A stretch of 64,000 nucleotides of DNA, taken from positions 49,772 through 113,771 of the forward strand of contig JALGVJ010000010.1 of assembly GCA_029838195.1 (NCBI GenBank). The letters run 5' to 3'. Made by a program: the position numbers and the translations under genes. Origin of the DNA: Promethearchaeota archaeon (GTDB lineage: Archaea > Asgardarchaeota > Lokiarchaeia > Sigyniarchaeales > SOKP01). The notes under the pieces were generated by a model. That model made no database searches. It had not been told where the DNA came from and was given only the letters and a program-made list of their open reading frames with translations. Positions within the stretch are counted from its first letter, which is position 1; each line of letters opens with the position of its first letter. This document shows, one piece after another, positions 38,570 to 49,774 of the stretch.

Positions 38570-39460
38570 ATGATGATTTGGCAAACTAAAATAACTAAAA
38601 TGACTAAAATTAAGTATCCACTCATCATGGGTGCTTTTGGAGGATGGGGAAAAGCAGAGTTCGCTTCTCATTTCTCTAATGCAGGAGGTTTGGGGATTAT
38701 CGCAGCACTTAATTTTCCGGATTTTAACGATTTTCGAAAAGAATTGTTTAAAATGAAACAACTAACCGATAAACCCTTCGGAATTAATTTGTCTTTACCT
38801 CATTCGAATTTAGAAAACCCCAAGAAAAAGACTCGATCCATGGAAGATTATTTGAACTACGTGGAGATGGCTTTAAAAGAAAATATCACGATTTTTACAA
38901 CTTCGGGTTATAAAGCTAGCTTTATTGGAAAGCGTATTCATGAAGGCGGAGGCCTCTGGTTTCATAAATGCGTGCTCATGAAACATGCGTTATCGGCACA
39001 AAATGACGGTGCGGATGCAGTCACGATAGTTGGTCTTGAAGGAACGGGATTCAAGCATCCATTAACAAATACTACATTAATAAACATTACCATGGGGAAA
39101 AAATTATTGAAAATCCCCATTATAGCAGCCGGAGGTATTGGAGATTCTCGAGGTTTTTTAAGTGCACTGCTAATGGGCGCAGAAGCCGTGTGCTTGGGAA
39201 CAGCCCTCATGGGTACAAAAGAATGTCCGGTATCCGAAAAAATTAAAAATAAATGGCTGCATCAAGACATATTTTCAAAAGAATTTCATGAAAAAATTTA
39301 TCTTTATAACACGAAAAATTTCATGGCGCCTTCTACCGCAATCGGGCATTGTAATAAAATAGTTTCACTAAAAGAATTTATTGATGATCTAATGAAAGGA
39401 GCAGAAGATATTTTAAAAAATTGGGGATTTAAATCAGGCTTTTTTAAAACTATAAGCTGA
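38570..39460 (+). CDS. Nitronate monooxygenase / FabK-like flavoprotein
   Basis: SNAGGLGII, TDKPFGIN, GLEGTG, PIIAAGGIGD, GAEAVCLGT. Confidence 0.9.
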   Translation: MMIWQTKITKMTKIKYPLIMGAFGGWGKAEFASHFSNAGGLGIIAALNFPDFNDFRKELFKMKQLTDKPFGINLSLPHSNLENPKKKTRSMEDYLNYVEMALKENITIFTTSGYKASFIGKRIHEGGGLWFHKCVLMKHALSAQNDGADAVTIVGLEGTGFKHPLTNTTLINITMGKKLLKIPIIAAGGIGDSRGFLSALLMGAEAVCLGTALMGTKECPVSEKIKNKWLHQDIFSKEFHEKIYLYNTKNFMAPSTAIGHCNKIVSLKEFIDDLMKGAEDILKNWGFKSGFFKTIS

Positions 39461-39601: not shown

Positions 39602-39780
39602 ATGAAAAATAACGAAACTTTAAATGTGTATGAAAAATTAAGGCAAAAAATGGATCGCTGGCCAACACGTGCTCCAAAATCCAGAGAAATCATTGCAATT
39701 CTTTAAGAATTATTTACTCCCCAAGAAGCCGAACTGCTTACTTATTTTTAAGCTCCCTTAACAGATCGGGCTTCTCCTCG
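39602..39780 (+). pseudogene. N-terminal remnant of an HTH/4Fe-4S protein
   Basis: MKNNETLNVYEKLRQKMDRWPTRAPKSREIIAIL*ELFTPQEAELLTYF*APLTD, with two in-frame TAA codons. Confidence 0.75.
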
Positions 39781-39811
39781 TCTTATTTTAATTCTCCTCG
39801 TCTTATTTTAA
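39772..39811 (+). repeat. Perfect 20-bp tandem duplication
   Basis: ttctcctcgtcttattttaa x2, at the point where the pseudogene homology ends. Confidence 0.9.
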
Positions 39812-39931: not shown

Positions 39932-40103
39932 ACTTAATAAAATTCAAGCTGGACGGGATGGACCGATTTTTTCATTTCACTTCTATAGAATGATTGTTTT
40001 TGTATGGGAAGGAGGAATCTATAATATCTATTTGATAAAAATGTAGAAAAATCATCACAAAATAAGTAACCTTTTTAAGAATAGAAACCATATTAGATAT
40101 AAG

Positions 40104-40296
40104 TGATGAGTGTGAATAATACTACAATATCGATGTTATTAGTACAAAATCTTTTATTACTGATTATCGAGATTATTGTAGTACTTATTTTATGAGCGAA
40201 TGAATTCCGCTTGATCTTTTTCTTTCACTTGTCCCGGAATCGTTCGCTCGCATGAGACATTTTCAAGAAAAAGATCAAGGTGGGAATTTTTTTCGC
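40104..40296 (+). ncRNA. Structured non-coding RNA / long 5' leader with alternative pairings
   Basis: Long hairpin 40112-40193; 15/15 perfect stem 40210-40224 with 40265-40279; competing 15-bp stem 40194-40209 with 40235-40249; T7 tract 40287-40293; TATA-like TTTTTAAG at 40072-40079. Confidence 0.55.
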
Positions 40297-40330
40297 CCTT
40301 GAAAATAAAGAGAAATATTAGGTAAGGAAC

Positions 40331-41764
40331 ATGTTAAAAAAAACGGAAAAAAATTATGATTTGAATTCGGATCTCCTCGGAATTGGATTTCAAACCCTAA
40401 AGGAGAGCATAGTGAATGAAAATAACTGTGTTTTATGCGGACTCTGCGCCTCTCTGTGCCCAAGGATCGAAATGAATGAAGTTTCGCCCTTGCTTTTGGA
40501 ATATGACCCGGAATGTTCAATGTGCTTTCGCTATTGTACAAGAACTCATTTTCCCATGGATATAGTTGAAAAAGAAATTTTCAATGAAGGAACGAAAAAA
40601 GATATCTTGATTGGATATCATCGAGCTCTTCTGACGGGCAAGAGTACCGATGAGCAAATAAATGATCAAGCCCAAAATGGGGGCATGGTAAGTTCTTTAT
40701 TAATTAATGCTTTAGAAAAAGGATTCATTGATGGAGCTCTCTTAACGGCTCGGGAACCCGATTGGAAACCCAAGCCGATTATCGCTAGGACTTCTGAGGA
40801 AATTTTGAGTGCTATGGGCTCAAAATATACAATGGCACCCTCTTTATTGACCTATCGGGAAGCCATAGATAAATACCATCTTAAAAACTTAGCCTTCGTG
40901 GGAATGCCTTGTCAAATAAGAGCCGTGAGAAAACTACAATTATATCCTCCTCTTTCAGAATCTTTTGGGCAAATATCATTAATAATTGGACTCTATTGTT
41001 CTGCTAATTTCTCAGATGACTTACGACATGAATACATCAAGAAAAATTTAAATCTATCCTTGAATGATATCAAGAAAATGGATATTTCTAAAGGAAAATT
41101 TATTTTAACCAAGGAGGATGGAGTGATTCTAAAAATTCCCTTGAAAGAAATCCTTCCATACAAATGGCCTGGATGTGAAACATGTAAAGATTATACGGCT
41201 GAACTTGCAGATATCTCCATTGGAAGTGTTGGTGCTCAATCTGATGATTGGAATAGTATTATTATTCGAACTAAAAGAGGAGAGGAAATGTTTAATGATG
41301 CTATCAAAAGTAAAAAAATAATGACAAGTCCGGAAGTTCAAAAATCTCAAATTGAGAAGGCTAGCCTACGAAAGAAGCTGGAAAAAATAAAGATAAATGG
41401 GGAAATAATCAAAGCTTTGAATTATTTAAACGTATCCGACATTCAAATTAGAATTTATGGAAATTTAGTGTCGTTAAGTGAATCGCCCCTTGAATTATTG
41501 AAAAAAGCATTAGATATTAATGATGACACCTTGTTGGAAAATTTAAATTCTTTAATGAAGAGAGGTTGGATTTATAAAAATAACGGATATTATTATCCTA
41601 ATAACCCAAAAGTCGTATTGGAAAAAGAAATTAGAGCGTATCAAGAAGAATTTAAGAGACAAATTGAAGAAGTGCGTCAAAAAGCATTAATCCCCTTAAA
41701 AAAGATGTTCCTACGCAATAACGCTGAAAGACTTGAGCTTAATGATTTTATAGATTATCCGTAG
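40331..41764 (+). CDS. Coenzyme F420 hydrogenase/dehydrogenase beta-subunit (FrhB/FdhB) family protein fused to a C-terminal TrmB-like HTH
   Basis: CVLCGLCASLCP, AQNGGMVS, GSKY, VGMPCQ, IGLYC, GCETCKDYTAELADISIGSVG. Tail LNVSDIQIRIYGNL...LNSLMKRGWI...YYPNNP. Confidence 0.85.
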   Translation: MLKKTEKNYDLNSDLLGIGFQTLKESIVNENNCVLCGLCASLCPRIEMNEVSPLLLEYDPECSMCFRYCTRTHFPMDIVEKEIFNEGTKKDILIGYHRALLTGKSTDEQINDQAQNGGMVSSLLINALEKGFIDGALLTAREPDWKPKPIIARTSEEILSAMGSKYTMAPSLLTYREAIDKYHLKNLAFVGMPCQIRAVRKLQLYPPLSESFGQISLIIGLYCSANFSDDLRHEYIKKNLNLSLNDIKKMDISKGKFILTKEDGVILKIPLKEILPYKWPGCETCKDYTAELADISIGSVGAQSDDWNSIIIRTKRGEEMFNDAIKSKKIMTSPEVQKSQIEKASLRKKLEKIKINGEIIKALNYLNVSDIQIRIYGNLVSLSESPLELLKKALDINDDTLLENLNSLMKRGWIYKNNGYYYPNNPKVVLEKEIRAYQEEFKRQIEEVRQKALIPLKKMFLRNNAERLELNDFIDYP

Positions 41765-43655: not shown

Positions 43656-44867
43656 TTAATTAATTATTTTTTTTGCTAATTCTTCTAATTCTTGCTCCGT
43701 GATAAATTGTCTTTGTTGAATCTCTTCTTGGATCTTTTCACGCAAGATTCTAATGTGGGTATCCGTGAAGGATAATCCCATTTTTGTTAACTTTGCTTTA
43801 ATCGCTCTCTCTTGTAAGGTAGTAGCCCCAAAAATTAATTTACGACTCTGACCCACGACGTGAGGCTGGAAAAGCTCCCAAAACGTCCAATTACCAATTA
43901 ATATTTGTTCTACATGTAAATCTGACTCGTGGATGAAACAATTTTTTCCAACAATCGCTTTATGAGGTTGCAGGGGCACGTTGCTGTATTTTTCAATGAG
44001 CCTTGAAACTTCCATGATCTTTTCCAATTTAATACCCGTATCAATTCCATATAAAATCTCAAGACTCATGATGACCTCCTCCGTGGCTGCATTTCCCGCT
44101 CGATCACCTAATCCATTAAATACGACATCTGCTACTTCTGCGCCTCCTTCTATTCCTGAAAGGGTATTAGCTACAGCTAACCCTAAATCATCATGCGCAT
44201 GAACTTCTATGGGGATGTTTTTCACGATTCTTTTTGTAAAAGCAACATATTCTCGAAAAGAAAGAGGAAACATGCATCCATTTCCATCATACACGACAAT
44301 CCTATCCACACCCGCCTCCATTGCCAATTTACAAAATTTCTCCCAATATCTTGGAATCACGCGCCCTGAACCAAAAGCCACGTGAGCTCCCATGGATTTA
44401 GCAAGTTCAATCCCCTCCGTAATCCTATTGAATACAGCTTCTTTAGACTTCAAGGCCGGACTTGGAACTAATAAGAAATTTACAGAATCTGCTTCTGCAG
44501 CCAAGATATCTTCTACTTCCTTTCTAATATCTTCAGCATATAAACGAGCATGGGAGGATAATCGCATGTTGATCCCTTCTTTTTTTAACGCTTTAAACGT
44601 TTTCGCGTGTTCTTCAATACCGGCTGCATATCCAACTTCGATTTCCGGAATTCCCATTTCTTCTAATAGTTTAGCAATTTCAATCTTTTGGTCAATAGTG
44701 AAATATGTTCCGGGAGTTTCTTCTCCTTCTCTCAATGTATCATCCTTAATGATAACTTTCTGCGGTAATTTCATTTTATTCCGAATGGATGTTTCAAAAT
44801 TATAATCAAAACTCCACCATCTCTGGTCCTTGTCCATTTTCATGGACGCCCAAGCATTAACCCACAT
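43656..44867 (-). CDS. Homocitrate/isopropylmalate synthase-like (DRE-TIM) enzyme lacking the regulatory domain
   Basis: DDTLREGEETPG, HAHDDLGLAVAN, NGLGDRAGNA, PHKAIVG. Confidence 0.85.
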   Translation of the reverse strand: MWVNAWASMKMDKDQRWWSFDYNFETSIRNKMKLPQKVIIKDDTLREGEETPGTYFTIDQKIEIAKLLEEMGIPEIEVGYAAGIEEHAKTFKALKKEGINMRLSSHARLYAEDIRKEVEDILAAEADSVNFLLVPSPALKSKEAVFNRITEGIELAKSMGAHVAFGSGRVIPRYWEKFCKLAMEAGVDRIVVYDGNGCMFPLSFREYVAFTKRIVKNIPIEVHAHDDLGLAVANTLSGIEGGAEVADVVFNGLGDRAGNAATEEVIMSLEILYGIDTGIKLEKIMEVSRLIEKYSNVPLQPHKAIVGKNCFIHESDLHVEQILIGNWTFWELFQPHVVGQSRKLIFGATTLQERAIKAKLTKMGLSFTDTHIRILREKIQEEIQQRQFITEQELEELAKKIIN

Positions 44868-45181
44868 TTATCGTCCCTTTTATTCAATTTATTTTAATTT
44901 TTACGGATAATTTATAACATGAAAAATTAACATGTTCATATAATTAATTTTTCGCTTGAGCATTGATAAAATTAACTCAGTTTCCAAATGAGCATGGAAA
45001 AAAGTTTCATTACATTTTAGGAAAATAATAATTCTAAACAACAAATATATATCAATCGCATTGAATTATTGATAATTTGGTTCCGGCCAATTAAGCAGTT
45101 AGGAGAAGAAATAGAATGGTAGCAAGTAATTTCATCATATGAATGAAAAGCTCCGGTAATGAAATTAACCTTTTAATTTAA

Positions 45182-48193: not shown

Positions 48194-49774
48194 TCACTCG
48201 TGTTTATTTTCTCGTGGTTTCGCAGAAATGTAAAATCCCGGATCTGACACGCCATTCGGGTCGAACTCTGCCTTTATTTTTCTTAACCAGATGTGATAAT
48301 TCATCATGTGAGGGCCCCATTCATCATGTAACTTATCACCTTCAATAAAAAATGGAGCTCCCAGCTTCTTCAAGAGGTCCATTTGATTACTCTCTTCCAT
48401 GTATTCTGCCATCCCTTTCACGCTCTCCTCATTCGTTTGATCAAACATCGTGGGTGCCTCCATGTGAAAATAATGCCCTCCTTCATAACTCGTCATCCAT
48501 GCACCTTCCCCAAAATCGTTGGCAAGAACTCCTTTCTCAATATATTTCTTTTTTAAAGGAATGTTTAATCGCTCCGCCCGCAAACAAGTAGCTGCCGTAT
48601 CGCATTGCCCTTTTGAAGATTGAAAGCCCCCTGTCGCAATGAATCCATGATATCCTAAATTCGCACGCAAGCATTCTGCATAAAAGATCGATTCAGGCTC
48701 GTATTTCGTGTCAATTATATTAGTTAAATTCAATTCTTCGAGAACATATTCCATTACTTTTTGTTTATATTCAAATTCTCGTTTCGTACGAGCTGTAATG
48801 ACGACTAATAAAGGACATTTCATGGTGCCAAGCGCCATTTTGTCCATTAAATCTTCTATGTTGTGGGAAAATATCGCCATGACTGCAAAACTTGATAAAT
48901 GAGAACATATGAACGCAATCTCCTCCTCTTCCACCCTTAACATCGCTTTTTCTAAGTGCTTGAAAGTTCCACAATCCATGACATATGCCCGAATATAATC
49001 CGGAATTTCAAATTCATATTTCGGCCCATGCCCTTTTAATTCATATTTCGTATCACACGGATAGGGAAATAACTTGATAGCAACTTTCGTGAAAATTCCA
49101 AGCCCCGATTTCGCGCCTACCCACCCACGCATGATACCCCGCAAGCTGGGACCTGGTCCATCGCCAGAAAACCAGTCTGCTTCATTTTTTAATCCCAAGG
49201 AACCCAAGCGTAGAATATCTCCCGTTGGTAATACCCATTCCGTTGCCAACACGTTCCGGGCGCTATGGCCGGTTGTAGGTGAAGTAAATCCGGGACCTGC
49301 CATGCTCGTGTGGCTCGCAAGCGGGCTTGCCATCGAGCCAGCACCCGGCATATGGAGAGTCAATCCAAATTTCATGACTTCTGCTTGTAATTGGGCTCCA
49401 CTCACGTATGGTTCAATCACGGCAAACAAGTTTTTTACATTGATCTTTACAATTTTATTCATCCTACGTAAATCTATTATGATAGAATTGCCCGTGCTTG
49501 GTTGATTCCACGGACCAAGTCCCGTACTCTGCGCTTTAAATACAAGATTATATTTATTGCATGCCTGAACGATTTTTTGTACCTCCCTCGTTGTAGAGGG
49601 CAGGATGACCGCTTTTGGCACGGCTGAGAAGGGAATAGGCTCTTTACCATCCATGTAGTTCACGAATTCCGTACACCAATTATAGGCATATACGTTCGTA
49701 ATCACTTCTCCATCATTCACGTTTTCCTTTCCCACGATTGCTTGAAATTCTTCGAGTATTTTTTGTTCTAACAC
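48194..49774 (-). CDS. FAD-linked oxidase (VAO/PCMH family)
   Basis: VILPSTTREVQ, IDLRRMNKI, EWVLPTGDILRLG, GLGIFTK, KIKAEFDPNG. Confidence 0.88.
   Translation of the reverse strand: MLEQKILEEFQAIVGKENVNDGEVITNVYAYNWCTEFVNYMDGKEPIPFSAVPKAVILPSTTREVQKIVQACNKYNLVFKAQSTGLGPWNQPSTGNSIIIDLRRMNKIVKINVKNLFAVIEPYVSGAQLQAEVMKFGLTLHMPGAGSMASPLASHTSMAGPGFTSPTTGHSARNVLATEWVLPTGDILRLGSLGLKNEADWFSGDGPGPSLRGIMRGWVGAKSGLGIFTKVAIKLFPYPCDTKYELKGHGPKYEFEIPDYIRAYVMDCGTFKHLEKAMLRVEEEEIAFICSHLSSFAVMAIFSHNIEDLMDKMALGTMKCPLLVVITARTKREFEYKQKVMEYVLEELNLTNIIDTKYEPESIFYAECLRANLGYHGFIATGGFQSSKGQCDTAATCLRAERLNIPLKKKYIEKGVLANDFGEGAWMTSYEGGHYFHMEAPTMFDQTNEESVKGMAEYMEESNQMDLLKKLGAPFFIEGDKLHDEWGPHMMNYHIWLRKIKAEFDPNGVSDPGFYISAKPRENKHE

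Follow-up and report, generated by a model that had tools for sequence, protein, structure and literature searches.

The gene for FrhB-HTH in a Promethearchaeota archaeon is preceded by a long leader with two competing folds, which raises the question of what signal such a leader would read and by what means. The locus lies on contig JALGVJ010000010.1 of assembly GCA_029838195.1, within a stretch of 64,000 nt (positions 49,772 to 113,771 of the forward strand). This whole stretch is referred to here as the window, and all coordinates are those of the window unless stated otherwise. A preliminary description presented the leader as a bistable structured noncoding RNA resembling a riboswitch or an attenuator. 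Comparison with related genomes, together with predicted folds, points to a ribosome-mediated leader-peptide attenuator at the 5' end of the FrhB-HTH mRNA, a reading to which a probability of roughly 0.7 is assigned.

The FrhB-HTH locus and its leader open reading frame

FrhB-HTH (40331 to 41764, plus strand) comprises 477 amino acids and shows, according to Pfam, a 4Fe-4S ferredoxin motif and the N and C domains of FrhB/FdhB, followed by a C-terminal winged HTH of the TrmB type. The TrmB match of the protein in the window scores 19.4 bits and thus stays under the Pfam cutoff of 25.6 bits, which is exceeded by four orthologues with 27 to 33 bits. NCBIfam yields frhB-like matches of sub-cutoff score. 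Full-length orthologues with 45 to 58% identity occur across the window's own GTDB family, and the protein is regarded as a putative redox-cofactor-binding transcription factor. The sequencing runs that contain the locus are DNA metagenomes from hydrothermal vents and sediment, with no RNA runs among them. The spacer between a FabK/NMO-like gene (38570 to 39460) and FrhB-HTH is unusually long at 870 nt and houses, upstream of the leader promoter, a perfect tandem duplication of the 20-nt unit TTCTCCTCGTCTTATTTTAA (two copies, 39772 to 39811, plus strand).

The leader promoter contains the TATA-like box TTTTTAAG (40072 to 40079, plus strand). The preliminary description had already called this box, and the call is borne out by the sequence and by its spacing: the first T of the box lies 34 nt ahead of an ATG at 40106, and 34 nt is the modal distance from TATA box to ATG in the leader family (62 of 103 members). 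Archaeal TATA boxes are centered about 26 to 27 nt ahead of the transcription start. The most likely start of transcription is therefore at about 40103 to 40106, some 30 nt past the box, and the 34-nt spacing predicts a leaderless or nearly leaderless start for the reading frame that opens at this ATG.

This upstream open reading frame (uORF) extends from 40106 to 40195 on the plus strand with 29 sense codons and a TGA stop codon, and it encodes the peptide MSVNNTTISMLLVQNLLLLIIEIIVVLIL. GTG 40103 is an alternative start in the same frame, giving a 30-codon frame from 40103 to 40195. Pairing in helix A, the first strand of the competing helices, begins with the last two bases of the stop codon (40193 to 40195, plus strand). 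The last 10 codons (40163 to 40192, plus strand) are the candidate sensing codons and read I I E I I V V L I L, with 5 Ile, 2 Val, and 2 Leu codons; LLLL stands just before this IIEIIVVLIL end, so that the tail is mixed. The frame from 40103 to 40195 spans the whole first structural domain of the leader and ends on helix A, contrary to the earlier statement that no plus-strand open reading frame precedes ATG 40331. Of the label "structured noncoding RNA," the structured leader stands, but half of the element is a conserved open reading frame.

Conservation of the frame is seen throughout the family. All 107 members keep it open for at least 25 codons, and the two other frames are interrupted by stops in 107 and 91 of these 107. 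A separate frame test took only the TATA box to fix the start and only helix A to fix the stop, an arrangement that would fall in frame by chance in about one-third of cases. The first ATG located 28 to 44 nt after a perfect box proves to be in frame with a stop on helix A, without an intervening stop, in 86 of 88 members, at uORF lengths between 18 and 32 codons. In each member inspected, a frame ends with a stop codon at the margin of helix A. In the alignment, this stop falls on the identical three columns in 79 of 95 members and, within the FrhB class, in all 18. The peptide has a conserved N terminus, M-I-S-N-N/K-T-A, and a hydrophobic tail, and codon-position entropy gives no more than a weak coding signal. 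The frame and spacing data thus describe a conserved short open reading frame in the 5' leader, placed for first translation, and the uORF is predicted to be translated from a leaderless start.

Competing helices in a family of leader RNAs

The uORF contains the hairpin P1 (40114 to 40190, plus strand), in which codons 4 to 9 pair with the Ile/Val/Leu codons of the tail. Its 10/10 stem (40120 to 40129 with 40174 to 40183) and the additional pairings TCGAT/ATCGA and ATTAGTA/TACTGAT had been noticed before and are recovered by inspection of the sequence, the repeat finder, and folding. Five further segments follow on the plus strand. Segment A (40194 to 40209) is the shared strand, which pairs with either C or E. 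Segment B (40210 to 40224) carries a T5 run at 40217 to 40221, 24 nt past the stop codon, and pairs with D (40265 to 40279) at 15 of 15 positions in the window. Segment C (40235 to 40249) is the first-transcribed partner of A, and segment E (40283 to 40296), which includes a T7 run at 40287 to 40293, is the second. The B:D pairing is found by the repeat finder, and the A:C pairing by the repeat finder and by folding, at the positions originally described.

The minimum-energy fold of 40100 to 40335 consists of P1 and one long A-B/D-E hairpin, with -61.5 kcal/mol; the alternative pairing of A with E that extends B:D, as first proposed, is therefore also the most stable structure. The z score is -4.1 on the plus strand, with none of 200 shuffles as good, and -6.2 on the minus strand, again with no shuffle as good. 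Stepwise folding in the order of transcription gives P1 and A:C once C is present (-42.2 kcal/mol), B:D after D (-45.6 kcal/mol), and the combined AB:DE hairpin after E (-58.0 kcal/mol). This hairpin of about 30 bp exceeds the A:C fold in stability by about 16 kcal/mol.

The two-domain element is present with compensatory changes upstream of FrhB-HTH orthologues at 15 of 30 fetched loci. A covariance model built from domain 2 (R1) matches 93 of 135 genomes of one Promethearchaeia GTDB family, representing 8 of its 13 genera, with one to three copies per genome. In 18 genomes of two sister families, no match was found with this R1 model. The copy before FrhB-HTH and the leaders before leuS form one covariance-model family, and at the 110 family loci the element is always followed on the same strand by a gene, at a distance of 5 to 50 nt. 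A FastTree phylogeny of the 125-nt elements places 16 FrhB-class copies in one clade with the window copy and that of a congener nearby, at too little signal to order the duplications.

The helices covary. Pairing in the 95 aligned members amounts to about 86% for A:C, with double-sided changes in 11 of 12 pairs of the main helix, and to 91% for B:D, with such changes in 8 of 9 pairs. No shuffle equalled these values, and slid controls reach 34 to 57% pairing. A:E is 65 to 85% paired with many double changes, a count that leans toward this structure as the alignment was fitted to it. Independently of the alignment, the A:E duplex has -10 to -15 kcal/mol compared to -5 to -8 kcal/mol with shuffled E in all gene classes, and it is better than shuffled E in 70 to 89% of the members of each class. 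Both partners of A thus covary, and the two competing folds suggested for the window hold for the family. The resulting arrangement is one of mutually exclusive helices, A:C versus A:E, within ribosome reach of the end of the uORF, whose stop codon overlaps A.

Transcription factor palindromes or the remnant of a MITE or IS end would place the signal at the level of DNA, and the good folding of both strands (z = -6.2 for the minus strand) is compatible with this. G-U cells nevertheless outnumber A-C cells in all three helices (112 versus 48 in A:C, 114 versus 33 in B:D, and 173 versus 81 in A:E, a 2.1- to 3.5-fold excess), which indicates that the plus-strand RNA is under selection and extends to the family an argument made from the wobble pairs of the window. 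The compensatory changes keep the pairing and not the sequence. BLAST of the element against the window's 4.5-Mb assembly returns only the locus itself, and R1 detects one further, diverged copy in this genome; with two copies in total and none dispersed, the element is not a MITE. It is also syntenic before orthologous genes across 8 genera. A DNA-level or mobile origin is extremely improbable, and the element stands as what the preliminary description had proposed in this respect, a conserved cis-acting 5' leader at a single locus on the plus strand, with family-wide conservation and covariation in orthologous loci.

A:C and B:D share no bases and could coexist as a pseudoknot. They are the best-conserved helices (86% and 91%), and the conserved core of B:D, with 9 bp, appears short enough to fit the loop of A:C. 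The leader might then be a static, constitutive pseudoknot that serves stability, a protein site, or autoregulation by the HTH protein or LeuRS, with the open reading frame being incidental. Such a static fold leaves three observations without explanation, namely, the A:E pairing, which covaries and beats shuffled controls in all classes, the stop codon fixed on helix A, and the class-specific codon content of the uORF. It is considered quite unlikely, and an attenuator with alternating partners of A is preferred.

The uORF folded alone has a median z score of -3.1 across 106 members, with 82% below -2. In the FrhB class, P1 forms a 9-bp stem at fixed offsets from ATG and stop; anchored alignment gives no common P1 register across all classes, the register being shared only within classes. 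A scan of the element against Rfam 15 gives chance-level matches, the best being a plant miRNA family (E = 0.11), and the Phe_leader family of Rfam 15 reaches 21.9 bits against a threshold of 55 bits. With no match at the gathering threshold, the RNA does not belong to a family in Rfam 15, in keeping with the first impression.

Codon content of the leader and downstream genes

The 110 family loci fall mainly into three classes according to the downstream gene, and Leu, Ile, and Val were counted in the last 10 codons of the uORF. The leuS class (71 loci) shows on average about 6.0 Leu, 0.03 Ile, and 1.3 Val codons. The FrhB-HTH class (18 loci, 17 counted) shows 1.8 Leu, 4.7 Ile, and 2.0 Val codons, and Ile ranks first among these amino acids in 16 of 17 tails. 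Leaders before a small acidic protein of about 41 to 65 amino acids, which has no Pfam match, form the third class (16 loci), with 3.3 Leu, 0.5 Ile, and 3.8 Val codons. Typical tails are DLLAVLLL-stop in the leuS class and LSIIILAVLII-stop in the FrhB class. According to NCBIfam, the leuS loci encode archaeal type 1 (63 loci), a second archaeal type with about 38% identity (4 loci), and bacterial-type LeuRS (4 loci). In the leuS class, the codons thus match the amino acid of the regulated gene, with Leu codons before three unrelated types of leuS. The amino acid run is swapped on one RNA platform in agreement with leuS in three lineages, and no other observation argues more strongly that the codons are read. 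The tail of the uORF is also constrained by P1 pairing, and part of its hydrophobic makeup may be structural.

The same data bear on a metabolite or cofactor riboswitch, in which binding of a ligand to the RNA itself (F420, a flavin, an amino acid, or a metal) would decide between A:C and A:E. A long structured leader without an Rfam match and with two covarying partners of A is what such a riboswitch could look like. Half of the supposed aptamer, however, coincides with an open reading frame that is conserved as such, and the invariant columns lie mostly in helices and not in junctions or loops. Instead of a conserved unpaired pocket before the genes of one metabolite, the same RNA is found before leuS, FrhB-HTH, and the small protein, and its class-specific part is the amino acid content of the uORF, which fits codon sensing. 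The idea of a ligand-binding aptamer is accordingly given up as very improbable. The codons of the miniature open reading frame vary with the downstream gene while the helices stay constant, which argues for codon supply read by the ribosome as the most likely signal.

The uORF could alternatively encode a functional small hydrophobic peptide, membrane bound or similar to a type I toxin, with the helices acting as a structured 3' region or as a stabilizer of the mRNA 5' end. Small toxin genes typically have highly structured mRNAs, and the high structure of this leader, the conserved N terminus M-I-S-N-N/K-T-A, and the hydrophobic tail agree with this explanation. The tail composition, on the other hand, tracks the downstream gene (Leu with leuS, Ile with FrhB-HTH, and Val with the small protein), and the hydrophobic run often has just 8 to 12 residues. 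Furthermore, the conserved N-terminal codons are the P1 partners of the tail codons, and the element invariably keeps its position of 5 to 50 nt before a gene on the same strand. A functional peptide is therefore unlikely compared to codons that are read for their supply.

Other loci show features related to these classes. The second copy in the window's own genome, located outside the window (L101:2259-2382 on the minus strand, equal to G000:C28:13258-13381), scores 41 bits and has a Val-rich tail, EVVVLLVVVL-stop. It lies about 50 nt before a small acidic open reading frame of about 41 amino acids, with an AGGAGG ribosome site and no Pfam match, which is convergent to an aminotransferase-like gene. 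LeuRS itself is diverse in the genomes of the family, with up to three highly divergent types, each of which is found behind the Leu-rich leader of this RNA (bacterial leuS_bact at L189 and L193 and archaeal type 2 at L190 to L192). In the own assembly (96.6% complete, 94 contigs), a search for archaeal-type leuS with an archaeal LeuRS query returned only other class I synthetases with 25 to 26% identity, and the leuS gene of this genome may lie in the unassembled part.

FrhB-HTH paralogues that have no R1 element (L049, L050, L057, and L063) show a conserved promoter-like motif, GATCATTTATATG, upstream instead. At least four FrhB-HTH loci without R1 contain short open reading frames in which three Ile codons stand at the end or close to it (PIII-stop, KIII-stop, LIII-stop, and LIIIEIF-stop), which hints that a different leader may tie these paralogues to isoleucine too. 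Within the window, a 15-codon open reading frame, MMKLLATILFLLLTA-stop, with 6 Leu codons (45091 to 45138, minus strand) is found about 220 nt upstream of a gene of the isopropylmalate/citramalate/homocitrate synthase family (43656 to 44867, minus strand), two genes from FrhB-HTH. This open reading frame may be another leader peptide.

Proposed switch, its output, and related systems

In the proposed mechanism, scarcity of charged tRNA-Ile (and of charged tRNA-Val or tRNA-Leu) would cause the ribosome to stall on the 3' arm of P1, with 4 to 10 codons left to the stop. Segment A would be left bare, and A:C would form once C emerges, with B held in its loop. In this state D and E would be open and the gene would be on. 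With good supply, the ribosome would reach the stop codon. The footprint of a ribosome extends about 12 nt ahead of its A site, so that it would cover segment A while C emerges. With A covered, B:D would nucleate, and after release of the ribosome, A:E would zip into the long hairpin, which represents the off state. This direction of the logic, with starvation as the on signal and the long hairpin as the off state, is held at somewhat better than even odds and is adopted by analogy with pheST and with the T-box control of synthetases.

Different candidates have to be considered for the output step. The hairpin and T7 run of the window had been taken as a possible terminator. The T7 run is indeed present, but it is a feature of the window's genus and one other member only, and runs of at least five T in or after E occur in about 14% of the members compared to 20% of background windows, without enrichment. 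A hairpin followed directly by a U tract, as in an intrinsic terminator, is thus not a property of the family, for which reason the element is filed as attenuator-like and not as a classical member. The sole conserved oligo-T run of at least five lies in B/L2 (89 of 106 members compared to 13% of background windows) and begins a median of 24 nt past the stop codon in the three larger classes. No stable hairpin stands ahead of this run, the pairing probability being 0.2 to 0.4 and mostly local. A pairing of the mRNA 5' end with A3'/B5', immediately ahead of the T5 run, is possible in the window but is not family-wide.

The ribosome site of the main gene and its AUG are similarly accessible in every modeled state, without consistent masking. 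In the free, A-blocked, and upstream-stall states, the unpaired probability of this region is 0.74, 0.54, and 0.72, respectively, in the FrhB class and 0.58, 0.52, and 0.55, respectively, in the leuS class. An SD-like GGTGG in E was examined as a hidden ribosome site and rejected, as no conserved start codon follows it. Mimicry of tRNA or a T-box, suggested by a UGGU motif and a T-loop-like GGGTTCG, was likewise rejected, since these motifs are not conserved in the leuS class. Archaeal RNA polymerase terminates at oligo-U without the need for a hairpin. Candidates for the output of the off state are oligo-U termination, factor-dependent termination, and RNA decay.

The position of the T run 24 nt past the stop codon makes a tnaC-like or coupling-based control of termination a live alternative, as a polymerase at the U tract would abut a ribosome on the last codons. 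In tnaC-type control, a ribosome held at the end of the leader open reading frame blocks factor-dependent termination. The present leaders resemble tnaC in that the sensing codons are the very last ones and in the U-rich tract 24 nt past the stop, from which the ribosome-polymerase geometry is deduced. No evidence of a termination factor site or of an arrest peptide as in tnaC is found in this leader family, and the archaeal termination factor FttA/aCPSF1 is not Rho. Control of this kind at the B/L2 U tract could reverse the logic of the switch.

Among known systems, the attenuator proposed here is comparable in the first place to those of enterobacteria, ilvL of ilvGMEDA, ivbL of ilvBN, and leuL of leuABCD. 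Common to both are a short leader open reading frame full of Ile, Val, and Leu codons directly upstream of the regulated gene, an end of this frame that overlaps the first strand of competing helices, and, as proposed here, a logic based on the position of the ribosome. In contrast to the enterobacterial examples, the host is archaeal, a conserved terminator hairpin with a U tract is missing, and the leader open reading frame is apparently leaderless. The P1 hairpin, in which the sensing codons are paired to the opening codons of the frame, is an additional feature. The 1:2, 2:3, and 3:4 scheme is replaced by a strand A with two same-sense partners, C and E, and an interleaved B:D helix. The target is a putative transcription factor gene instead of a biosynthetic operon, and there is no sequence similarity according to Rfam.

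T-box leaders are tRNA-sensing riboswitches before synthetase and amino acid genes in Firmicutes. The family resembles them in its location before leuS-type genes, in its competing helices, and in the proposed response to tRNA charging. It differs in that there is no Rfam T-box match, specifier loop, or conserved antiterminator bulge and in that the amino acid identity is carried by the open reading frame and not by a tRNA-binding stem. Classical attenuation regulates pheST in the pheM-pheST arrangement of gammaproteobacteria, and classical attenuators have been predicted before leuS and trpS of Streptomyces (PMC1262725). Most members of the present family are similar to the Streptomyces leuS prediction, as they sit before leuS with a Leu-rich leader open reading frame. 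They belong to another domain of life than these two examples, however, with an unrelated RNA sequence and architecture and without a terminator hairpin with poly(U), and the window copy sits before FrhB-HTH and not before a synthetase. By analogy, the element may be described as a variant that works like an attenuator, with its function closest to that of the ilv, leu, and pheST attenuators and the predicted Streptomyces leuS attenuators.

In bacteria, leader-peptide attenuation is a textbook mechanism, and it requires ribosomes that keep close behind RNA polymerase. A full-text literature search found no paper on leader-peptide attenuation in Asgard or other archaea. That the Asgard family uses true ribosome-mediated attenuation, with one modular platform (P1 and segments A to E) recoded through the tail codons of its leaderless uORF to sense Leu in front of leuS, Ile in front of FrhB-HTH, and Val in front of the small protein, is judged marginally more probable than its opposite. 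Such a codon-swappable Asgard version would mean that coupled transcription and translation are used for regulation in these organisms, and one would then have to ask how a polymerase whose termination does not depend on hairpins is switched. The copy in the window would extend the device beyond synthetase and biosynthesis genes to a putative regulator. Its Ile codons give a first functional hint for the uncharacterized FrhB-HTH fusion, namely, a link to isoleucine supply. If the reading is correct, the charging of tRNAs for isoleucine or branched-chain amino acids would directly control the cofactor-binding transcription factor FrhB-HTH and would couple amino acid supply to a wider regulon in a lineage near the eukaryotic stem.
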